In this document: in pieces, positions 52,222-63,010 of the stretch | Position numbering within the stretch: the first letter of the stretch is position 1 | How the letters are laid out: each line of letters starts with the position of its first letter | Assembly: GCA_048885525.1 (NCBI GenBank) | Contig: JBHLLP010000012.1 | Span: 1 to 64,000 of the forward strand | Direction of reading: 5' to 3' | Origin: Candidatus Hermodarchaeota archaeon | GTDB lineage: Archaea > Asgardarchaeota > Lokiarchaeia > Sigyniarchaeales > SOKP01 | DNA length: 64,000 nt | Notes under the pieces: generated by a model | The model's database searches: none | What the model saw: the letters and a program-made list of their open reading frames with translations, nothing else | Told to the model about the DNA's origin: nothing | Program-made: the position numbers and the translations under genes

Positions 52222-52728
52222 TTAATTAATTTCTAAAGAATTACCTAATTTATATTCAATATCTTCAATATGAGAACCTTGCCAATATACTTTTTTACAT
52301 TGAAGATTTGAACATTGATAAAATTCAGTATAATTATTATATGTTTCTTCTAAAACGTACATTTTTATAGAATTCTTATTTTGTACTCTTTCTAACTGTG
52401 AATTACACATTGAACATCTCGCCTGTTTAAGATTAAATTTAAAATTTAAACCTAACTTTTTATTGAGTTGTTTTAAGTAGTTATATATGCCTTCTCCACT
52501 GAGAAAAATACTCTTATCTTCATAATGCTTGTATAAGACATAATCTTTAGTAACGATAATTCTTCTATTTCTTTTTGCATAATCTATTAACTTTTCATCA
52601 GGAACTGGATCTATATTAAAATAACCAATTAAATCATTGGCATAAATTGTGTCAAAACCAAATATTCTAAGGAATCTTGATAATTTACCTAACATCGCAT
52701 CGACTAAAAATTTCATATTATTTATCAT
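52222..52728 (-). CDS. Mut7-C (PIN-like) RNase domain protein
   Basis: FLVDAMLGKL.RFLRI.G.DT, TKD, RCSMCN, C..CKKVYW.GSH. Confidence 0.92.
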   Translation of the reverse strand: MINNMKFLVDAMLGKLSRFLRIFGFDTIYANDLIGYFNIDPVPDEKLIDYAKRNRRIIVTKDYVLYKHYEDKSIFLSGEGIYNYLKQLNKKLGLNFKFNLKQARCSMCNSQLERVQNKNSIKMYVLEETYNNYTEFYQCSNLQCKKVYWQGSHIEDIEYKLGNSLEIN

Positions 52729-52814
52729 ACGCTTTTTTTATTTATTAATAGGATAAATATATTTAAAGCATCTTATTATTTTACTTAAACCAAATAAAAA
52801 TCATATAGATTTAA

Positions 52815-53342
52815 ATGGAAGCTAAGGAATTAATGGAAAAAGCTGCAAGATTTCATGGGCATATTTGTCCGGGTCTTGCAATTGGTGTTTTAGTTGCTAA
52901 ACATGTCTTAGAGCATGGATATAATTATTCTCCAAATGAAGAGTTAGTTGCTGTCGTTGAGAATGATAATTGTAGCGTTGATGCTCTCCAAGTAATTTTG
53001 GGCACAACATATGGGAAGGGTAATCTTGTGCATAGAGATTATGGGAAGATGAATTACTCTATTTATGATAGAAGAACTCAAAAAGGTATAAAATTAGCAT
53101 TAAAAAGTAGACAACTTAATGGTGAAAAATTAACAAGAGATGAAAAAATTCAATTTTTATTGAAATCAAAACCAGAAGATGTATTTAAAATTGATAAGAT
53201 TGAATTTAATCCTCCAGGATTAGCCCAGATTGAAGAATCTGCACCATGTGAGATATGTGGAGAAATTACTATGAGTAGTCGACTTATGATATATAATGAT
53301 TCTGAAATGTGTGTTCCTTGTTATAAAAAAATAAGGGGATAG
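52815..53342 (+). CDS. FmdE family protein
   Basis: FHGHICPGLAIG, END.C.VDA.Q, GKGNL, C..CGE..C.PC. Confidence 0.92.
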   Translation: MEAKELMEKAARFHGHICPGLAIGVLVAKHVLEHGYNYSPNEELVAVVENDNCSVDALQVILGTTYGKGNLVHRDYGKMNYSIYDRRTQKGIKLALKSRQLNGEKLTRDEKIQFLLKSKPEDVFKIDKIEFNPPGLAQIEESAPCEICGEITMSSRLMIYNDSEMCVPCYKKIRG

Positions 53343-53457
53343 ATAAAAATAATATCATTTCATGTATTAGATTTTATGGTATATTTCTTAATGCTTCTTT
53401 CAATATGAAGAAATTTACTTATTATTTGATTGAAACTAAATAATGATGTAAAATGAA

Positions 53458-54222
53458 ATGGTTGATAAAAATCTGATGATAATGGATGGTGCGGGTCCTT
53501 TTCTTTTTGAAGGAAATAAAGTTGGAATCCTCATGATACATGGAGGTGGTGGAGGAACATGTGCAGATTTAAAACCTTTAGCAGAGTATTTGTATGCAAA
53601 AGGAGGTTATACTGTAAAAATTCCCTTACTTCCTGGTTTTGGAACTTCGCCTGAAGATTTAAAAAACATTAAGATTAATGATTGGAAATCAGCTTTAAAG
53701 GAAGAAATAACAATATTAAAGGATACTTGCGATAAAATAATTGTAGGGGGGCATTCTATGGGGGGTCTTTTAACTTTAATATTAGCAGCAAATTATAATT
53801 TTGATGGAATTTTTACGATTAGTGCCCCCGCAGGAGTTCAATCATTTTTGATTAACTTAGTTCCTTTATTCCAAATTTTTGTAAAATATCATAAAACCCC
53901 TTCTGAAAAATTCAGAAAAGACACAAATGGAAAGTGGGTTGGGTATGATAAGATTCCCGTAAATATTGGAATAAAAGCAAAAAAATTGATGATAGAGATG
54001 AAACAATCTTTATTCAAAATTAACTGTCCAATAATATTATTTCAAGGTCGATTAGATTCTGATATTAAAAAAAATAGTATGGATTATATTTTCAGTAAAA
54101 TCAGTTCTAAAACTAAAAAAAAGATATGGTTGGAACATAATGATCATCCAATATTAGACAGCCCCGATTACAATCAAATTGCGTCTGAACTTTTTAATTT
54201 TATTCATGAAATTTGTCCTTAA
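53458..54222 (+). CDS. Alpha/beta-fold carboxylesterase
   Basis: IHG, LPGFGT, GHSMGG, QG..D, H. Confidence 0.88.
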   Translation: MVDKNLMIMDGAGPFLFEGNKVGILMIHGGGGGTCADLKPLAEYLYAKGGYTVKIPLLPGFGTSPEDLKNIKINDWKSALKEEITILKDTCDKIIVGGHSMGGLLTLILAANYNFDGIFTISAPAGVQSFLINLVPLFQIFVKYHKTPSEKFRKDTNGKWVGYDKIPVNIGIKAKKLMIEMKQSLFKINCPIILFQGRLDSDIKKNSMDYIFSKISSKTKKKIWLEHNDHPILDSPDYNQIASELFNFIHEICP

Positions 54223-54334
54223 ATTATTTATTTATGATTAAATTACTAAAAATATCGAAGAGTAGACTTTAGCAATTTTAAAAAGTTAAACTTATGAGAT
54301 TTTTTAACGCTTTCAAATATGAGAGGAATCATCC

Positions 54335-55558
54335 ATGATTAAGAATATAAATAAAGGGAATACTTTATTAGTTAAAGGTCCAGCAAGAATAACTTTACTA
54401 GAAGGAAAAGTAGATGTTATTGGTAAGATATTTTCTCAGGATAAAAATATCCAGTCTGCTAATTCTACCGATAAAAATACATTAATTGTCCCTAGTGCCC
54501 AAGTTTATCCTCTATATGCCCTAGTTAAATCAAAGTTAGAAATTTATACTAATAATGAAGAAAATCTTAAAGAAATCCAAGAAAACACGATCTCCTCCAA
54601 GTGGAATGAAATTAAAGACTTGATAATAAACGAATTGAAAATAACTACAAATAAGCCTTTAAAAATAATGGTGTTAGGAATTAGTAGTGGAAAAACAACA
54701 TTTATCAAATACTTAGCAAATAACTTTCTTAAAGAAGGACTGAAGGGTGCATATTTAGATTCTGATTTAGGTCAACAAATTATATATATACCCACAACAA
54801 TTAACATTGGTACAATTGATGATTATATCATTTCAAGTGAGGATATTATATCTGAAAAAACCATTTTTATTGGTGCTACGTTCCCGAAAGGAGATAATAA
54901 ATTTATTATCTCTCTTTCCTGTAAAGGTTTAGTCTCTGATTATGTTGCAAAATATAAAGATGTTGATTTTATTCTTATTGATACAGATGGCTGGATTAAG
55001 ACTGAGGCAGGGATCATTTATAAGAATTTTTTTATTAAAGTATTAGATCCAGATATCATAATTGTGTTTCACGATGAGACAATTGAAGAATTACTCGCTA
55101 TAGAGAAGAGTTTCTCGAATTTAAGAAAAGATAGAACAATGTATTTAATTAAGGAGAAAAATATATATTTTTATGAAAAAGATAAGGAAGAAAGAAGATT
55201 TTTACGCCAAAGTCAATTCTCTAAAAAATTTGAGGTGTTTAGGAAAATATCAATCCCTTTAAATGACACGAAATTTATAAAAACTGAATATGATAAAGAA
55301 AGAGATCAAATTATCGAAAAGAAAATTGATGTTAATGACCTTGTTACGCTTCCTTACCATTATGTAATAATAGGTTTAATGACTGAAGAATCAGATTTAT
55401 TAGAAATAGGTCTCTTATTTACAGTAAATATTGAAAAAAACTATATTTTATTATATTCAAACATTTCATATAAAGAACAACTAAAAGTAAAAAAGATATT
55501 GCTTGGAAGCTTAAGACTTAGCACGAAGGGTAACCATCAAGGATATCTATATCTTTAA
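54335..55558 (+). CDS. Clp1/Grc3-family polynucleotide 5'-kinase
   Basis: LLVKGPA N-terminal domain, SGKTT, DSDLGQ, IDTDGW, R..LR lid. Confidence 0.85.
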   Translation: MIKNINKGNTLLVKGPARITLLEGKVDVIGKIFSQDKNIQSANSTDKNTLIVPSAQVYPLYALVKSKLEIYTNNEENLKEIQENTISSKWNEIKDLIINELKITTNKPLKIMVLGISSGKTTFIKYLANNFLKEGLKGAYLDSDLGQQIIYIPTTINIGTIDDYIISSEDIISEKTIFIGATFPKGDNKFIISLSCKGLVSDYVAKYKDVDFILIDTDGWIKTEAGIIYKNFFIKVLDPDIIIVFHDETIEELLAIEKSFSNLRKDRTMYLIKEKNIYFYEKDKEERRFLRQSQFSKKFEVFRKISIPLNDTKFIKTEYDKERDQIIEKKIDVNDLVTLPYHYVIIGLMTEESDLLEIGLLFTVNIEKNYILLYSNISYKEQLKVKKILLGSLRLSTKGNHQGYLYL

Positions 55559-55573
55559 TTTTTAATTTTTTCA

Positions 55574-55627
55574 ATGAATCCCTTATTATTTCTTAATTTT
55601 GAAAAATCATGATATGAATCCCTTATT
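55574..55627 (+). repeat. 14-bp direct repeat ATGAATCCCTTATT x2 upstream of the ATP-grasp gene
   Basis: Identical copies at 55574-55587 and 55614-55627. Confidence 0.85.
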
Positions 55628-55685
55628 CAATTTTTACAAACATGGGATAAAATTTATTTAAATTATGATGTAATTATAATAAGTT

Positions 55686-57128
55686 ATGGACGAACTTCTC
55701 ACAAAGTTTTTAAAATTGATGTCCGCAAGAATTACAGATTCAGATTTAGAATTAATTAATTTAGGAAAATCTTTAGGATTAGATTTAGTATCTTTTGCCG
55801 ATTTAAGAGCCTCACAAGAAGATATATTTGCTGATGAAGTAAGACAAAAAGCTTTAGAGATAATGGAAAAAAATAAGGATAATGTTTTAAGTACTTTAGA
55901 TTCATTTTATGCTGGAAGTATTGATTTTATGGTCTCAGATGAAGCCGAAGAGAAAAAGTTTTTTTTATTAGAAACTAATGGAGGATCTCATCGAGGACTT
56001 TCAATAATTACTGAAAAACAACAAATTCTTCTATATGATGGATATTTAGAAGCTATTAAACAAGCAATTAAAAGAAAAGAGAATACTATAGATAATGTAT
56101 TTGTAATAATTGGAGTACCAATTAACGATGGATTAATTCATGAAAAAGTTATAATGATTGAATATTTCAGAAAAACACTTAAAGCTAATGGGTATTCTGT
56201 AAAAATTTTTAATACGGATAATTACAATAAGGACTTTAAAGCTGAAATCATTGTTTTAATAGCTGATTATCAGCAACTATCCTCATCTCTTTCATTTTCT
56301 AATAATTGGATTAAATATAAAGGAGAGAACGTAGGAGTATTAATAGGAGATGGTATTACAAGACGTTTTAAGAATAAAAAATTTTCAAAATTAGTGAAAA
56401 AAGAGTTTCGAGAAATAAAATCAATTTTAGTTAACCCTATATTTCATATAACAGATGATAAATCTCTAACATATTTAGCAAGCTATTTTAGTAAAGATCT
56501 CCTCAAAAAATATAATTTAAAATATCTTTTATTCACAAAAGCTTTTAATGAAAAGGATTTGATCGATAAATTAAAATATCTTATTAAGGAATATAAAAAA
56601 TCTTTTATTATTAAACCTAGTGGGGGTTCTGGAGGAGCTGGCGTCATTCCCGTTTCTAAGGATGAAGATCCTCTTAATATTAAAAATATTGTTGAAGAAA
56701 GTAAAAAGGAATTTTTTGCTAAGTTCATGAAGTCGCGCGATCCTTTTCCATATACGATTCAAGAAATGGCCGATTTCTCATTAATAGAGTGGCAGGAAGG
56801 GAAACACACATTTGATTTACGGATTTATTTAGCTCAAAGAGATGGTAAAGTTATCCCAATTGGAGGGTTAGCTAGAATTGCCCGAGAAGAATTTATTCAT
56901 AAAAAAAGACTGAATAAGCAAGAATTTGTAGTCAATCTATCTGGCTACAATGGTCAAATTGAAGTTAAACGTGGAATAGGTTTCTCGGAAAAAAACTGTA
57001 AACTATTAAACTTAACAAAAGATGATTTTACAAATATGTTTTGCATAGGTTGTGTTTTATTTTCGGGAATGGTTAAAAATTATCATAAAATCATCAATTT
57101 TACAAATTGGGAAGAAATATTCGATTGA
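55686..57128 (+). CDS. Circularly permuted ATP-grasp ligase (TTL/YheCD-like motifs)
   Basis: The metal-binding D..E-x-N segment (SIDFMV..FFLLETNG) is at the N-terminus, followed by VNP..DDK, IIKPSGGSGGAGV, IQE, FDLRIY, GGLARIA, VVNLS. Confidence 0.8.
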   Translation: MDELLTKFLKLMSARITDSDLELINLGKSLGLDLVSFADLRASQEDIFADEVRQKALEIMEKNKDNVLSTLDSFYAGSIDFMVSDEAEEKKFFLLETNGGSHRGLSIITEKQQILLYDGYLEAIKQAIKRKENTIDNVFVIIGVPINDGLIHEKVIMIEYFRKTLKANGYSVKIFNTDNYNKDFKAEIIVLIADYQQLSSSLSFSNNWIKYKGENVGVLIGDGITRRFKNKKFSKLVKKEFREIKSILVNPIFHITDDKSLTYLASYFSKDLLKKYNLKYLLFTKAFNEKDLIDKLKYLIKEYKKSFIIKPSGGSGGAGVIPVSKDEDPLNIKNIVEESKKEFFAKFMKSRDPFPYTIQEMADFSLIEWQEGKHTFDLRIYLAQRDGKVIPIGGLARIAREEFIHKKRLNKQEFVVNLSGYNGQIEVKRGIGFSEKNCKLLNLTKDDFTNMFCIGCVLFSGMVKNYHKIINFTNWEEIFD

Positions 57129-57129
57129 G

Positions 57130-58290
57130 ATGAATGCTGAAACCCTAAAATCATTATTAGATATTTCTAAACGTTACAATTTATATACAAAGATTCTGAA
57201 AGAATTAGATATTGTAAGAAATTTAGAATATACCAGCTATCGAATTTATAATACTTCTGAAGGCATTATTCCTCTAATAAAAATTGCTAAAAATTCCAAT
57301 TTTGATGAATTAAAACATATTAAAATCTTTATTGGTGCACAGCAAAATGAATATAATGGTTTATTTAGTATCCTGAAATTTTTTAAATTAATACAAGATA
57401 ATAAAATTCAAATCAATAAATTAATCAGAGAAGATCAAGTTCTTTTCTTTTTGCCATTATTAAATCCTTATGGGTTTTTGAATCCTAGTAAAAATAATAA
57501 ATCTGGTTATTATTTAAAAAATGGTTCAAATCTTAATAGATTTTGGGTTAGAGCTTTCGTCCCTGAATATAAAAATGGGATTATAGATTTAGATACAATT
57601 AAAACACCCGAACAAGTTATTATTGTGAAAGAATTACTTCAAAAATATTGGGATAACGAAGATATTCATATATACATACTCGATTTCCATGAGACTTCTT
57701 TATTGAATAGATTTCCAGTTGAATTAAGTACAAATCTAAATCCCTTTTATAAATTTGATCATTGGTTAAAAGAGGGTATTATACTAAATATTATTAAGCT
57801 ATACGATATCCCTTATTATCGAAAACCTTTATTCTTTAAATGTAATCCTTCCGCCGATCACACGCATCTAAATTTAACTTATAAACAAATTGAGACCGTT
57901 CATGAAAAACTTTATGACTATATATCAAGGAATTTGGGGATGGGCAAATTACCTTTCTATTTTTGCTACAGCGACAAGAGTAGAGATTTCTGTCTAAAAC
58001 TTGCAAATAAAGTTTATAATAAACTGAAAGACAAATTATGGGAAACTTACTTTCCTGCTTTTGATCATAGTTTTAAAAATCATGGTTGTTTTGTAAGAAT
58101 GAGTGATGCGACATCTCGAGCTAGAGTTTATAGCATGGAATTAGAATCTCAAAAACATTTCTTCAACATCTTTGAAGAAATAAAAAAATTAAAATCAGTT
58201 CCTAATTACATTGAAAATAAACTTGATCTCATTAATGTGAGTATTGAATTAGCACTTGAGACTATAAAGGAGATGATAGAATTATTTTAA
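57130..58290 (+). CDS. M14/AstE-fold zinc carboxypeptidase-like protein
   Basis: GAQQNE, PLLNPYG, NLNR.W, LDFHE, SMELE; ATG at 57130 is 1 nt after the upstream TGA. Confidence 0.75.
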   Translation: MNAETLKSLLDISKRYNLYTKILKELDIVRNLEYTSYRIYNTSEGIIPLIKIAKNSNFDELKHIKIFIGAQQNEYNGLFSILKFFKLIQDNKIQINKLIREDQVLFFLPLLNPYGFLNPSKNNKSGYYLKNGSNLNRFWVRAFVPEYKNGIIDLDTIKTPEQVIIVKELLQKYWDNEDIHIYILDFHETSLLNRFPVELSTNLNPFYKFDHWLKEGIILNIIKLYDIPYYRKPLFFKCNPSADHTHLNLTYKQIETVHEKLYDYISRNLGMGKLPFYFCYSDKSRDFCLKLANKVYNKLKDKLWETYFPAFDHSFKNHGCFVRMSDATSRARVYSMELESQKHFFNIFEEIKKLKSVPNYIENKLDLINVSIELALETIKEMIELF

Positions 58291-59285
58291 TTGTTTATAA
58301 AACTGAGAATTGCCCCAACTAAAATACATTCATTTTTTTTATTTGAATGACCACCTTTTTTTAATATTAGTATATTCTTCGCTGGTGATTCTAAAATTAG
58401 TTTATTTTCTATTAAATTTTTGAATTTTGTTACTTTATCGTTTTTACAATGGATTAGCATAACTTTTTTAGATAATTCTTTCCATTCTTCTGATGTTAGT
58501 TCCTTTTTAGCATTTTTTATCAATAAATAAGGAGATAATTGACTATTCTCTTCCAAAGTTGGAAATAATTTCACCCCCTTAAATAAATAATTTAGGATAA
58601 CAACTGGATTGTATTTTGGAATGTTTTCTTTATAATGTGATATAGAAGCAATTGCAATAATTTTCTCAACATCTATATTCATAAAACCTCCTGATAAAAC
58701 GGTAATAGCACCTATACTAAAACCAATACAAAAAATCTTCTTATTTGAAAATTTTTCTTGATTTTTTACCCATTGAATTATTTTTTTAAAATCTTCAATT
58801 CTTTGTAAAAAATCGCTTCTCCTTCCTGTTTTTTTTGATTTTCCCGTACCTCTTGCATCATAAGCTAAAATAATATAACCTTGATAAGCAATTGGAAAAT
58901 ATAAATATTGAAGTCTTTCTTTTGTGTCAGAAAAACCATGACAAATTATAATTACTGCATTTTTTGAATCAATTTTAGCTTGCTCCCTACTTTTTACTAG
59001 ATTTACCGATAAAAATCCATCAGAGACATTAATTTGTAAATTTAAGACTTGCAAATCCTTGAGAAAAAGCTTTCTCCACCGATCGAACCAGAGATCTCGA
59101 AAAGACCAATAAATTTCGAATGGTGTGTAGACAATTAAAAAAGTTGTTAAAGATAAGATAAAACACTGTGAGAAAGCCGTTGTATAACAAGGATTTCCTA
59201 ATGAAATATTGACCTGCCAAATATACCAGCTAAATAAAATATCAATAAAAATTAAAATTATACGTTTTAGAGTATTTCTTATCAC
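58287..59285 (-). CDS. Membrane-anchored alpha/beta hydrolase
   Basis: Two N-terminal TMs, CHGF, YDARG.G.S, GFSIG, H..ND, GGH. Confidence 0.85.
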   Translation of the reverse strand: MIRNTLKRIILIFIDILFSWYIWQVNISLGNPCYTTAFSQCFILSLTTFLIVYTPFEIYWSFRDLWFDRWRKLFLKDLQVLNLQINVSDGFLSVNLVKSREQAKIDSKNAVIIICHGFSDTKERLQYLYFPIAYQGYIILAYDARGTGKSKKTGRRSDFLQRIEDFKKIIQWVKNQEKFSNKKIFCIGFSIGAITVLSGGFMNIDVEKIIAIASISHYKENIPKYNPVVILNYLFKGVKLFPTLEENSQLSPYLLIKNAKKELTSEEWKELSKKVMLIHCKNDKVTKFKNLIENKLILESPAKNILILKKGGHSNKKNECILVGAILSFINN

Positions 59286-59426
59286 AGATTTTCACAGCAA
59301 TAACTTATCTTAAGAAATCTATACTTTTAATTTTTAAAAGATAGAAATGGTGTAGAAATAAAATATTTTTCTTAGTAAAATAGGAAGAGATTTATAATGT
59401 CTCTTCTCAGATTGATTTATTGTGTG

Positions 59427-59747
59427 TTATTTTTTAGCTTTATCTGGAGGACATCCGAAATCATCCCTTACTTTACAATTTCTTTTGCTAGAACTGCCTG
59501 GGCATGGAGCACATTTAACTTTTCGCATAAGAGCTTCAACTTCATCTATCTCATAACCAAAAGATTCCTCCTCTGTCTCATCTACTAGCATATCATCCTT
59601 AATTTTACTCAGATCATAATCTATATCTTCTTCTAGATTATCTTTCCAATCTTCCAAATCTAAAATCTCATCCCCATCTTCATCAATTTTTCCTGATGGA
59701 AGTTCTAAATCTTCATCCTCAACAGGAGCACTCTTTTTTTTAGCCAT
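59427..59747 (-). CDS. Small acidic protein with C-terminal 4-Cys motif
   Basis: MAKKK start (ATG at 59747), long D/E-rich tract, then CAPC-x8-C-x7-C. Confidence 0.75.
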   Translation of the reverse strand: MAKKKSAPVEDEDLELPSGKIDEDGDEILDLEDWKDNLEEDIDYDLSKIKDDMLVDETEEESFGYEIDEVEALMRKVKCAPCPGSSSKRNCKVRDDFGCPPDKAKK

Positions 59748-59902
59748 GTTATTCACATATATTAAAAATATATTTTTACAATTGAATTTTTTTTATATAT
59801 AATATTTGCTAAAATTTAATTTTATTAGTTTTAAGTATGGTAAATTCAAAAACACCATGACTATCTAATCGTATATAATAAAAAATTAATAGAAGAAGTG
59901 TC

Positions 59903-61993
59903 CTAGGATACATCTTTAATATAGATCTGATTAATTTGATCCAAGAGAGGTTCATTCTTGTATATAATGTTGAATATGTTCTTAATTTCATCTAAAGTAG
60001 GCTCCAGCTCTTCTATTAAGTACGTTTCATAATTATCAATCTTATATCGCGGTATGAGGTACTTAAATTGAATGTTTTTCAGTTCTATTTTCGAGTATAA
60101 GAATTCTCTTATAAAACTGAAATCAATATTAGATTCTAAATATAACTCATCTAAATATATTAGTTTTACTAAGGAATTACATAATTTTATAAAAAATCGT
60201 AATAATCTTTTAAGTTCCAGTTGATATTTTTGATTTAGAAATTTTAGATCTAGAGTTCTATAGATAAATTTTGAACTTAGATCATAATGCAATTGAGATA
60301 AAATTTGAATAATTTTTCCACAATTGGATAATGATAAAGGAAGATTTTTTGGTATTGGCAATCTTCTTATAAAACTTCCATTGAATCTTAAATAGCCACC
60401 GGCCATGTGAAGAGAACTAAATAATGTTTTAAATACAGTATCTAATAGTGTTGAGTTCAATAATGCTAAGAGACAATATAACTGCTGAGTATTTATCGAA
60501 GGGATCCTCATTAAATATAAACCAGTTATATTAGCAAAGATTCCAGGGTCATACACACAGGTTAATTCTTTGGCAATTTCTCTAAAAATAATTTTTTCAT
60601 TTTTTAGGTCCTGCCAAATAGGATTAAAAGTAGGATTATAATTAAAATAACAGATTTCAAGATCTCTCTTAGCTATCTTTATCCTTTTATTAAATTTAAG
60701 ATAATATTTGTCGACATTTCCTGTCCCAATTAATAGTAAATCAAGATCAGATTGGGGTTCATCGCTGATATTATCAAAATATTTGCCATATTTTAAAAAA
60801 CCAAAAGGGCGATATATAATTTTCAAATCTTTGAAAGTTTCAGATAACGTTTTAAAGTTTCTAAACAAGTATGAAATTATGTTAATATTTCCTGAGATCG
60901 GTATTACTTTTGACGGGAATATATTGATTAGATTTTGATTGAATTTTATTATCTTTATACTATTATTTTCATTTAACTCATTTAGGTTATTAAAAGCTTT
61001 AACATTCACCTCATGTTCCTTTTTTTGCTTAACCTTTTTTAGCGATAAAATAATTGGATATGTAGCTACATTTTGAAATATAGATATCGACGATATATTT
61101 ATGATTTCTTTAATTTCTGATTTATTTAATATTAACTCTCTAATTTTGATACCATAATCAGCAGATAAGAATTTATTAGGTAAAATGAATGAAAGATATC
61201 CATTACTTTCTAATAATTCTAACGCTCTCTCAATAAAGAGGATTGAAAGATCAAATAAACGATAGGCTGTTTTATATCTTTTAGTTAAATTGTTCTTGAA
61301 TTCAATTGGTTTTATCTTTTTATTTTCTACATAAGGAGGATTTCCAATTATTATATCGAATTTATCAGAATTAAACTCTAAAAGAAAATCTAAATTAAAA
61401 AGATTAAAACTTAGATTTAAGAGCTCAATGATTTGGTTAAAATTTGTGATTTTTATGTTTTTAAAATTATCATTTTGAAATGTAAAGTTATTGTTATCTG
61501 TTATTAAAAGCCATTTAATTAATCGCAGTTTTGAGATAAGAATACCTGATTTTTCAATTTCAATTCCATACAGATTTTTTTCAATTATTAATTTCTTTAT
61601 ATCAAAATCAGATAATTTTGGCTCTAACATTCTATAAATATAATACAATTTTTCAGCTATAGATACTAAAAATCTCCCAGAGCCACAAGAAGGGTCTAGA
61701 ATCCTTATATTTTTAATTATTTTAATTAAATTCTCTTTAGTTTTTAGATTTTTAATTAGTGTATGAATAACTTCTTCTAAATCCGATCCATTTTTAATTT
61801 CTTTATTAAAAGAAACAAATTTTTCGAAATAGATTCTAAAGATCTTAGTTACTATATAATCTACAACTTGGTTCGGTGTATAGATTATTCCAAGATTCCG
61901 ACTCTTATCCTTTTCGAGAAATTTTTCATTTTCAAATCTCTCAATTCGTTTCTCAATATTATTTAATAATTTTTTAACTACTGATCCTTCCAT
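59903..61993 (-). CDS. N6-adenine DNA methyltransferase (Eco57I/TaqI-like gamma class) with target-recognition domain
   Basis: YTP, LDPSCGSG.FL, IIGNPPY, F.ER..LL..G..FI.PNKF, LLALLNS. Confidence 0.9.
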   Translation of the reverse strand: MEGSVVKKLLNNIEKRIERFENEKFLEKDKSRNLGIIYTPNQVVDYIVTKIFRIYFEKFVSFNKEIKNGSDLEEVIHTLIKNLKTKENLIKIIKNIRILDPSCGSGRFLVSIAEKLYYIYRMLEPKLSDFDIKKLIIEKNLYGIEIEKSGILISKLRLIKWLLITDNNNFTFQNDNFKNIKITNFNQIIELLNLSFNLFNLDFLLEFNSDKFDIIIGNPPYVENKKIKPIEFKNNLTKRYKTAYRLFDLSILFIERALELLESNGYLSFILPNKFLSADYGIKIRELILNKSEIKEIINISSISIFQNVATYPIILSLKKVKQKKEHEVNVKAFNNLNELNENNSIKIIKFNQNLINIFPSKVIPISGNINIISYLFRNFKTLSETFKDLKIIYRPFGFLKYGKYFDNISDEPQSDLDLLLIGTGNVDKYYLKFNKRIKIAKRDLEICYFNYNPTFNPIWQDLKNEKIIFREIAKELTCVYDPGIFANITGLYLMRIPSINTQQLYCLLALLNSTLLDTVFKTLFSSLHMAGGYLRFNGSFIRRLPIPKNLPLSLSNCGKIIQILSQLHYDLSSKFIYRTLDLKFLNQKYQLELKRLLRFFIKLCNSLVKLIYLDELYLESNIDFSFIREFLYSKIELKNIQFKYLIPRYKIDNYETYLIEELEPTLDEIKNIFNIIYKNEPLLDQINQIYIKDVS

Positions 61994-62104
61994 TGAAATT
62001 ATATTATGTATTTTAAATTTCTTTATTTATAAAAAGAAAAGTAACTATAATAAAAATAATAGAGTTATTAAAAAGATAATTAAAGGAAAACAACCAGATC
62101 AATT

Positions 62105-63010
62105 TTGAATTTTGTAGACAATTCAGCTTTATATGAATTAATAAATAACCCACAGAAAATCTCTGCACTAAAATTTGATATTATTTTAAATATCATAAAG
62201 ACATTTAAATGTATTTTAGAAAAAGAAAATTTACTCTTGGAGGTTAATTTTAAAGAAAAAAAGGAAGAAGCTTATGTAATAGGGGATATACATGGAAATT
62301 TGGAGACTTTAACAAAATTGATTGAAATAATTAACCATAAAAATCCAAAAATCATCATTTTTTTAGGAGACATTGTCGATCGTGGACCAAAACAATTTGA
62401 ATGCTTAATGATAGTCTTAATTTTAAAGATTCTTCACCCATCAAAATATTATTTATTAAGAGGAAATCATGAAACATTAGAAATGAATGAATATTACGGT
62501 TTCTTTCAGGATTTTATTTCAAGATTTAAAAATCAGAGCAAATTCAATGAAATTTTGAGTATTTATAATCTAATACCGATATGTGCATTAATTAATAAAG
62601 CAATATTATGTTTGCATGGAGGGATTCCAGAGGATTTTGACATTTTAAAAAAATTGCAAGGTCAAAGATGCATGAACTTTAAAGAAGTTTTCAATTTAAA
62701 TATGCAAGGGATTTATCAAATTATGTGGAATGATCCTAAATCTGGATTAGAAGGATTTTCAGACAGTTTTAGAGGTCCAGGAATTAAATTTTTTGGATAT
62801 GATGTTTTTGAAAATTTTATGAAATATAACAATCTTAAATACATAATTAGATCACATGAATGTTTTTCTGAAGGATATCGATGGTTTTTTAACAAAAGAT
62901 TATTATCTATATTTTCATCCGCAAATTATCGAGGATTTTATAGTCCAAATCCCGCATCTTATGCAATAATAAGAAATAATGAAATAGTTCCAAAATTATT
63001 GGTTTTATAA
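62105..63010 (+). CDS. PPP-family Ser/Thr protein phosphatase
   Basis: GDIHG, GDIVDRG, RGNHE, LHGG, WNDP, RG.G..FG, IRSHE, FSSANY. Confidence 0.95.
   Translation: MNFVDNSALYELINNPQKISALKFDIILNIIKTFKCILEKENLLLEVNFKEKKEEAYVIGDIHGNLETLTKLIEIINHKNPKIIIFLGDIVDRGPKQFECLMIVLILKILHPSKYYLLRGNHETLEMNEYYGFFQDFISRFKNQSKFNEILSIYNLIPICALINKAILCLHGGIPEDFDILKKLQGQRCMNFKEVFNLNMQGIYQIMWNDPKSGLEGFSDSFRGPGIKFFGYDVFENFMKYNNLKYIIRSHECFSEGYRWFFNKRLLSIFSSANYRGFYSPNPASYAIIRNNEIVPKLLVL

Follow-up and report, generated by a model that had tools for sequence, protein, structure and literature searches.

A putative circularly permuted ATP-grasp ligase paired with an M14-fold hydrolase in Lokiarchaeia

The 64,000-nucleotide window analyzed here (contig JBHLLP010000012.1 of a Candidatus Hermodarchaeota archaeon, positions 1 to 64,000) carries two adjoining genes on the + strand, the ligase gene LIG (55686-57128; open reading frame (ORF) of 480 aa without a curated Pfam or NCBIfam model) and the hydrolase gene PEP (57130-58290; ORF of 386 aa without a Pfam match). 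Conserved residues and structural models support LIG as a circularly permuted ATP-grasp enzyme, and on the same grounds PEP is regarded as an M14-fold enzyme whose metal site deviates from the usual one. We see an even chance that LIG is a small-peptide or amide synthetase and PEP an accessory, carboxypeptidase-like hydrolase. What makes the system unusual is that an uncurated permuted family, near-universal and very strongly conserved in one Lokiarchaeial family, is coupled to an M14-fold partner whose metal motif is non-canonical. Of all archaea, Lokiarchaeia belong to those most closely related to eukaryotes.

The gene pair and the fold of the ligase

LIG and PEP are separated by a single nucleotide: the junction TGA-G-ATG (57126-57132, + strand) consists of the LIG stop codon (57126-57128), a G (57129) and the ATG from which PEP is counted (57130-57132), exactly as an earlier sequence-only reading of this DNA had placed it. 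This spacing implies one predicted transcription unit, and translation of both genes is probably coupled. Judged by comparison of their sequences, both are genuine genes and not chance ORFs, because homologues are numerous (413 of the ligase and 217 of the hydrolase in a search of 5.8 billion proteins; 55-84% identity among Lokiarchaeial metagenome-assembled genomes (MAGs)).

The sequence-only reading had described LIG as a circularly permuted ATP-grasp, and the stretches it quoted were all recovered. Residues 74-99 (FYAGSIDFMVSDEAEEKKFFLLETNG; 55905..55982, + strand) form two beta-strands, 76-85 and 90-98 in the AlphaFold2 (AF2) model, with the Mg-binding acid D80 and E96-x-N98; classical ATP-grasps carry the corresponding segment at the C-terminus. 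The ATP-binding lysine K310 and the glycine-rich lid lie in residues 307-319 (FIIKPSGGSGGAG; 56604..56642, + strand), which include IKPSGGSGGAG (308-319) and align to the Lys/Gly-loop stretch of TTLL7, biotin carboxylases and PurD. FDLRIY...GGLARIA (residues 376-399; 56811..56882, + strand) comprises central-domain strands with the near-invariant R379; this motif was aligned with 'KFDLRIY...GLVRMG' of TTLL7 and forms part of FDLRIY..GGLARIA..VVNLS, which spans residues 376-419. The residue order of LIG is consequently D80/E96/N98, then K310 and the lid (310-319), then the DxR strand with R379. In an alignment of 73 sequences extending down to 16% identity, conservation reaches at least 90% at D80, E96, N98 and G99 as well as at K310, P311, G317 and G319, and R41, Q44, D80, E96, N98, G99, G104, E153, D222, N250, K259, Y263, L292, K310, P311, G317, G319, S339, P355, Y356, T357, R379 and N417 are near-invariant; for D80/E96/N98 and K310/G317/G319/R379 this holds in ligases down to 16-20% identity.

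When the family profile of the ligase was compared with sequences of the Protein Data Bank (PDB), the order of matches was inverted in tubulin tyrosine ligase (TTL), pyruvate carboxylase and methylcrotonoyl-CoA carboxylase: the match to family positions ~58-89 (GxDFxV...xIExNG) lies downstream of the match to ~270-430, the matches being individually weak. The best PDB sequence match was a partial one to TTLL7, a member of the TTL-like (TTLL) group (E 1.7e-4). With two further profiles (A1 and A2) nothing significant was obtained among PDB sequences, the meaningful weak matches being only PurD and carboxypeptidase N. A hidden Markov model of the Mg-binding segment recovered only LIG itself among all ORFs of the genome and so did not show the order inversion within this genome. 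In a Pfam scan, which filters out short segments, the Mg-binding segment taken alone from 10 family members yielded no ATP-grasp match.

The AF2 model of LIG (pLDDT 91.9, pTM 0.92) has the three-domain ATP-grasp fold. Full-length sequential alignments, over residues ~19-471, were obtained solely with known permuted ATP-grasps: 3k1t (structural score 15.7; 331 aa aligned, model residues 57-471), the glutathione synthetase (GS)-like 5oeu (13.8), yeast GS 1m0t (13.5), YgiC 7uka (13.0), the glutathionylspermidine synthetase GspS 2io7 (12.7), 3n6x (12.0) and Cp1B 9cjn (10.1). The top Foldseek match was human GS (E 4e-13). Classical ATP-grasps aligned only from model residue ~125-138 onward and with the first ~220-300 residues of their own chains (ArgX/LysX 12.9/11.9, Ddl 12.3, TTLL11 10.7, TTL 9.6, RimK 9.5, TTLL6 9.1, TTLL7 8.0). 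Their alignments end ~50 residues short of their own C-termini, and it is in this C-terminal part of ~50 residues that the Mg ligands of classical ATP-grasps sit. ESM Atlas clusters with CP_ATPgrasp_1/2, GshA (PF08886), GSP_synth (PF03738) and GSH_synth_ATP (PF03917) matched LIG residues ~19-471 with TM scores of 0.51-0.58, those carrying PF14403/PF04174 with 0.54-0.55 over residues 19-436. A higher TM score than for any named permuted ATP-grasp family, 0.71 over the whole model, was found for the closest non-self Atlas structure, which belongs to an unnamed cluster that is 86% eukaryotic and mostly from Mucoromycota. Permuted conserved residues, order-inverted profile matches and permuted structural matches thus all support the circular permutation that had been read from the sequence.

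Only ATP-grasp matches below threshold were obtained for LIG with Pfam and NCBIfam. The best Pfam match was YheC/D ATP-grasp (residues 280-402, E 1.5e-5, 24.8 bits, below the cut-off); CP_ATPgrasp_2 (PF14403) reached 16 bits against a cut-off of 32, residues 295-399 aligning to model positions 280-374 of 374, and 2 of 47 LIG relatives matched PF14403 (E 0.002 at best). PF04174, PF03917, PF03738 and PF08886 gave no match in the Pfam scan. As no curated permuted family matched above threshold, the ligase is by sequence a separate, uncurated family sharing the permuted topology. It is also a small family, since a profile search run exhaustively over 1.84 billion representatives returned just 85 of them at E <=1e-3. 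A search for fused, longer forms of the ligase was negative, which is weak evidence. The designation 'TTL-like' of the sequence-only reading stood as far as a few shared short motifs are concerned; however, Pfam TTL (PF03133) did not match LIG at E <=1, the structural scores of TTL and TTLL enzymes are weaker, and LIG lacks the classical, non-permuted domain order of TTL.

The hydrolase and its variant metal site

The motifs quoted earlier for gene 2, namely PLLNPYG (residues 109-115), NLNR (134-137), DFHE (185-188) and MELES (336-340), are in place as well, and PxxNPxGF is conserved in 120 homologues. The PEP model has a carboxypeptidase A-type alpha/beta fold. This fold upholds the assignment to M14, as do the retained NxNR, the second His and a catalytic-strand Glu, except that the HxxE zinc motif reads Q-Q-N-E, which had been missed. 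At this position (Q71-Q72-N73-E74; 57340..57351, + strand) the family consensus is Q-H-N-E, with Q71 in 120/120, H72 in 119/120, N73 in 120/120 and E74 in 119/120 homologues. The sole exception at H72 is the PEP of this genome, where codon 72 (57343-57345) is CAA for Gln. Of the canonical M14 zinc ligands HxxE...H, the first motif is therefore absent from PEP, while the second ligand, His187, is kept. In the Q-H-N-E of the family, Q71 and H72 are both candidates for binding the metal.

The other active-site elements are retained. N134-L-N136-R137 (57529..57540, + strand), invariant or nearly so, is the counterpart of the M14 'NxNR', and HMMER paired it with the 'DLNR' of carboxypeptidase N; in M14 enzymes the NxNR motif (Asn144/Arg145) binds the free C-terminal carboxylate of the substrate. 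D185-F-H187-E188 (57682..57693, + strand) contains the second metal-binding His, H187 and E188 both being found in 120/120 sequences. E337-L-E339 (58138..58146, + strand) lies in the last core beta-strand, 333-341 in the model (E337 114/120, E339 120/120), and either Glu is a candidate for the general base at the position of Glu270 in carboxypeptidase A (CPA). Altogether 79 columns, including NxNR, DFHE and ExE, are at least 97.5% conserved across the 120 sequences, and a homologue of 29% identity from a distant Lokiarchaeial lineage keeps QHNE, NTNR, DFHE and E-I-E. These conserved columns and motifs argue for purifying selection on the active site.

H72Q is the only deviation of this genome's PEP at the 79 highly conserved columns. 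Its activity is uncertain because the metal site is non-canonical and the family His72 is lacking, and this copy may be impaired. Records of the QQNE protein sequence exist for 3 contigs; the substitution could be an inactivating step toward the loss that the gene has undergone in related species.

PF00246 as well as the remaining Pfam and NCBIfam models gave no match to PEP, a genome-wide PF00246 search was silent at the locus, and a precomputed PF00246 match exists for 1 of the 120 homologues. PEP appears to match all M14 subfamilies equally. In comparison with M14 (CPA/CPB, CPT, CPN/CPM and the CCP-like 4a37, 4b6z and 3l2n), the family differs in its Q-H-N-E in place of HxxE, in extra invariant residues (H211, H244, H313, H318 and C320) and in ~80 extra residues. 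The N-terminal beta-sandwich domain of cytosolic carboxypeptidases (CCPs) has no counterpart in PEP: the model aligns from residues 79, 80 and 81 of 3l2n, 4a37 and 4b6z, respectively, leaving the first ~80 residues of the bacterial CCPs unmatched, and the N-terminus of PEP is helical in the model. An hhalign comparison of the hydrolase profile with one canonical Lokiarchaeial M14 protein (55 columns, probability 1.5%) placed AQH-NE over AQHHARE, a hint, not evidence, of a one-residue deletion within HxxE.

Occurrence, adjacency and loss of the hydrolase

All close homologues of LIG and PEP are from Lokiarchaeial MAGs of the Promethearchaeota, where they are annotated 'hypothetical'. Among 400 genomes of the phylum that were searched, LIG is present in 121 of 134 members of the host's own family and PEP in 87 of 134, some of the latter merely as fragments with stops. 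Two of 14 genomes of a sister family have LIG and two have PEP; in another family of the class LIG occurs in 1 of 2 genomes and PEP was not found. The rest of the phylum gave only three weak, partial LIG matches (E 8e-6 to 7e-4).

Adjacency was analyzed at 80 fetched loci from species-level genomes. PEP lies directly 3' of LIG in 53 of them, with tblastn alignments 5-61 nt apart (mostly 5-26 nt), and is cleanly absent from 27; remnants were seen at L003, L012 and L016. On the ligase tree the absence of PEP requires at least 7 changes in addition to the three remnants, and all 16 key ligase residues are intact at the 27 PEP-less loci. The hydrolase has thus been lost at least 7 independent times while the ligase stayed intact, and PEP is missing from about one third of ligase-bearing genomes. 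The expectation that the gene pair would be conserved was therefore borne out in that the pair occurs across lineages, but not for the hydrolase within them. Because LIG is found in 121/134 and PEP in 87/134 genomes, because of the repeated losses and because PEP-less ligases are intact, the hydrolase is, by comparison of these sequences, accessory, the ligase functioning on its own in many related species. In-frame stops were seen in the ligase of a few genomes, namely L054 (2) and G147:C27:435935-437353 (1 TGA); L054 is also without hydrolase, and the whole system may be decaying there.

The coupling of the two genes, as proposed before, is substantiated by the 1-nt spacer, by the adjacency at most loci and by a distant Lokiarchaeial MAG in which the pair (41% and 29% identity for LIG and PEP) is kept with a 20-nt spacer among ubiquitin-system and ribosomal genes; the two genes are adjacent in a sister-family genome as well. 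Within the family itself adjacency is weak evidence, since the whole ~12-kb neighbourhood is syntenic. This raises the question whether the adjacency has little meaning, or whether PEP is a non-catalytic or repurposed neighbour, with LIG acting alone on an unrelated substrate. With the whole block syntenic in 80 species-level genomes, adjacency within the family could be explained by inheritance alone; every member has Gln in place of the canonical first zinc ligand, His72 is also lacking in this genome, and PEP has been cleanly deleted repeatedly, with remnants left at L003, L012 and L016. However, the 79 conserved columns and the motifs kept at 29% identity speak against a non-catalytic PEP, the pair stays adjacent amid entirely different surrounding genes, and no hydrolase without a ligase in the same genome was found among the 400 genomes. 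We consider this explanation improbable. The coupling looks functional, and the hydrolase is nevertheless dispensable. A prediction of the LIG-PEP complex scored 0.00, which speaks neither for nor against binding.

Candidate substrates and gene neighbourhoods

LIG is proposed to be a cytosolic carboxylate-amine ligase. It would hold ATP among K310, the Gly-rich lid and R379, with Mg2+ at D80/E96/N98, and would phosphorylate the carboxylate of its substrate to an acyl-phosphate, which an amine (amino acid or polyamine) would attack to give an amide, ADP and Pi; the product would most likely be a low-molecular-weight peptide or amide. PEP would recognise a free alpha-carboxylate via N136/R137 and strip the terminal unit for turnover, recycling or editing. 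By analogy, the pairing would resemble the synthetase/amidase of GspS. The pairing of an ATP-grasp amidoligase with a peptidase is in itself familiar.

We lean towards a small-molecule substrate because of the structural neighbours of LIG, the bacterial contexts of its relatives and the adjacency to genes of polyamine metabolism in one genome. The characterised structural neighbours all make small amides, i.e. glutathione (GSH), homoglutathione (hGSH), glutathionylspermidine (Gsp), peptide-spermidine and the E-64 precursor (Cp1B). The grouping with small-molecule enzymes, which the sequence-only reading had regarded as a result that would count against it, was thus found in part, in that the solved structures closest to LIG are those of ligases for glutathione, glutathionylspermidine and peptide-spermidine. 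Distant bacterial members of the ligase family (17-19% identity; L087:5001-8256 and L088:6001-8732) overlap the start of a gene for a transporter of the major facilitator superfamily (MFS), and one such member, which carries a GPP34 (GOLPH3-like) domain fused at its N-terminus, lies between two Ddl-like ATP-grasp genes; from its gene content this setting looks like a cluster for small-molecule biosynthesis and export. In the sister-family genome L106 (G139:C101, 2268-6703) the LIG-PEP pair directly follows genes for a pyruvoyl arginine decarboxylase and a deoxyhypusine synthase on the same strand. A polyamine link is possible there, GspS/YgiC-type relatives being ligases of spermidine, the observation coming from a single genome.

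The circular permutation of LIG is also that of eukaryotic GS, GspS and peptide-spermidine synthetases, CP_ATPgrasp_1/2 and PF08886, be it by common origin or by independent permutation of a TTL/YheCD-like ancestor, and each of these systems differs from the pair described here. From the similar model residues spanned by the Atlas GshA cluster we infer that 3k1t ('putative gamma-glutamylcysteine synthetase' of Methylobacillus flagellatus) belongs to the PF08886 GshA family; LIG is 12% identical to it, and PF08886 did not match in the LIG Pfam scan. The biochemical assignment of PF08886 is itself thin, and we know of no M14 partner for this type. Identity to eukaryotic GS and hGSH synthetase (2hgs, 1m0t/1m0w, 3kaj/3kal, 5oes; PF03917/PF03199) is 9-14% (root-mean-square deviation 4.5-7 Å (VIA); no Pfam match), and no dedicated hydrolase partner of GS is known to us. 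GspSA (2io7), the peptide-spermidine ligases YgiC/YjfC of E. coli (7uka/7uk6), trypanothione synthetase and the fungal Cp1B (9cjn) are 11-12% identical to LIG, again without a GSP_synth match; the hydrolase of GspSA is a fused CHAP-type cysteine amidase, whereas here it is a separate M14-fold protein. Cp1B carries out a step in E-64 biosynthesis, forming the precursor amide (PMC12568646). The partner also sets LIG apart from CP_ATPgrasp_1/2 (PF04174/PF14403), whose neighbours in bacteria are typically alpha-E, transglutaminase or NTN-hydrolase genes. According to their Pfam descriptions, these are predicted peptide-synthesis ligases adjoining peptidases. No alpha-E, transglutaminase or NTN-hydrolase (proteasome-like peptidase) gene was found in the LIG neighbourhood, in agreement with the sequence-only reading, and no literature linking Asgard archaea, ATP-grasp and carboxypeptidase was found.

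Several results weigh against a small-molecule synthetase. LIG is 9-17% identical to every characterised ligase and no permuted-family Pfam model exceeds its threshold, therefore structural proximity says little about the substrate. The best PDB sequence match, TTLL7, is a protein-modifying enzyme. A GCS2-type gamma-glutamylcysteine ligase was not found in the genome, and the glutathione pathway is thus not supported. The MFS-linked relatives are distant, the adjacency to polyamine genes was seen once, and the metal site of PEP is non-canonical with His72 lacking in this copy. Overall, the findings may be compatible with a protein substrate as well as with a small molecule.

A protein substrate is the essence of a rival explanation, reversible protein tagging, in which LIG adds amino acids (Glu/Tyr) to a C-terminus or a Glu side chain and PEP trims them, as an Asgard analogue of TTL/TTLL and CCP. 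The tubulin code (TTL/TTLL with CCPs of subfamily M14D) indeed has in common with LIG/PEP an ATP-grasp writer and an M14-fold eraser, and FDLRIY, GLxR and GxDFxV..ExNG resemble motifs of TTL/TTLL. In addition to the TTLL7 match of the ligase profile, 2 of 47 LIG relatives touch Pfam TTL (E 2.7e-5). PEP has the carboxypeptidase fold of CCP-type deglutamylases and the NxNR that binds a C-terminal carboxylate, and the ligase is single-copy with a mean column identity of 77% in one Lokiarchaeial family. The analogy with the tubulin code as such gained no support: a PF00091 search of the genome returned only two FtsZ genes and no tubulin was detected, PEP appears to match every M14 subfamily alike, and the CCP N-domain has no counterpart. 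A Tubulin_C search of the genome found nothing, its controls being uninformative. We regard reversible tagging of proteins as unlikely. Somewhat less probable still is its more specific form, in which Lokiarchaeia built, from a permuted ATP-grasp, a pair that tags and de-tags the C-terminus or a Glu side chain of a cytoskeletal or translation-related protein, for instance the tail of FtsZ or another acidic C-terminus, as an independent archaeal invention in the style of the 'tubulin code'. In a variant, the ligase family may be shared with eukaryotes, by vertical descent or by transfer, as a homologue from the green alga Tetrabaena socialis (PNH11051.1) matches the ligase profile (E 1e-4) and the Mucoromycota cluster resembles the LIG model. 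Further relatives of the ligase come from Hodarchaeales, a cyanobacterial MAG and the cultured methanogen Methanonatronarchaeum thermophilum (WP_086636686.1; 33% identity, mis-named 'TIM barrel enzyme' in one record). No M14-like partner or single conserved neighbour was seen around the distant homologues L081-L086 and L090.

Identifying what LIG makes would bring to light a low-molecular-weight peptide, thiol or polyamine conjugate that is new for archaea; less probably, it would reveal a novel protein modification in Asgard archaea. The series of species with and without hydrolase and the cultured M. thermophilum homologue make the question experimentally approachable.

The block that surrounds the pair (52222-63010) is syntenic in ~80 species-level Lokiarchaeial genomes. 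It comprises, in order, genes for a Mut7-C RNase, an FmdE-like Zn protein, an alpha/beta hydrolase, a Clp1-type P-loop kinase-like protein, LIG and (PEP), followed by an alpha/beta hydrolase, a 109-aa hyper-acidic Cys-rich protein, an Eco57I-type methylase and an ORF at 62105-63010. The stop codon of PEP overlaps that of the convergent alpha/beta-hydrolase gene. The 109-aa protein was considered as a LysW-like carrier and rejected, as its C-terminus is basic, its gene is on the opposite strand, and it is an ordinary member of the synteny block.

These neighbours bear on a further explanation, that LIG takes part in an RNA-end or translation-related process and modifies a factor or a nucleic-acid-linked carboxylate together with RNA-processing neighbours. 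The Clp1-type P-loop polynucleotide-kinase-like protein is encoded upstream of the ligase in 73 of 80 loci, with the Mut7-C RNase nearby. Moreover, three deeper Lokiarchaeial lineages, each with its own gene order, encode a protein of 402-405 aa in the vicinity of the ligase (L105:11223-12431; L107:8098-9306, minus strand; L106:1013-2230). Its copies are 49-68% identical, and it is joined by Metallophos and HD phosphohydrolases in two of the lineages (L105 and G128). No Pfam, NCBIfam or PDB sequence match was obtained for it; its motifs NACG, GNHFID, HGS and PHGGGY presumably recall RtcB-type RNA ligases, a likeness seen only by eye. However, in the present genome this protein (G000:C63:2277-3497) and the Metallophos and HD genes are encoded on contigs other than that of LIG, it has no detectable family, synteny among relatives is weak evidence, and to our knowledge no ATP-grasp of this clade acts on RNA. 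An RNA-related role therefore appears very improbable.

At the locus of the class-level relative L107 (G128:C1, 5189-8055), which has a ligase without PEP, an M20/M25/M40 peptidase gene converges on the 3' end at a distance of 30 nt and may have taken the place of the hydrolase as a non-orthologous substitute. In the window, the 127-nt intergenic region 5' of LIG contains an exact 14-nt direct repeat (ATGAATCCCTTATT; 55574-55587 and 55614-55627, 40 nt apart) that is not conserved in related loci. A TATA-like box read from the sequence, TTTATTTAAA (55653..55662, + strand), lies 24-33 nt 5' of the LIG ATG and is likely the archaeal promoter of a near-leaderless LIG-PEP transcript; the block TTT(T/A)TTTAAATTGTG.T.TAATTAT..TAA.TT-ATG upstream of the ligase is kept in the closest relatives. 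Residues 1-11 of LIG are conserved in relatives, yet many database entries begin at Met12.

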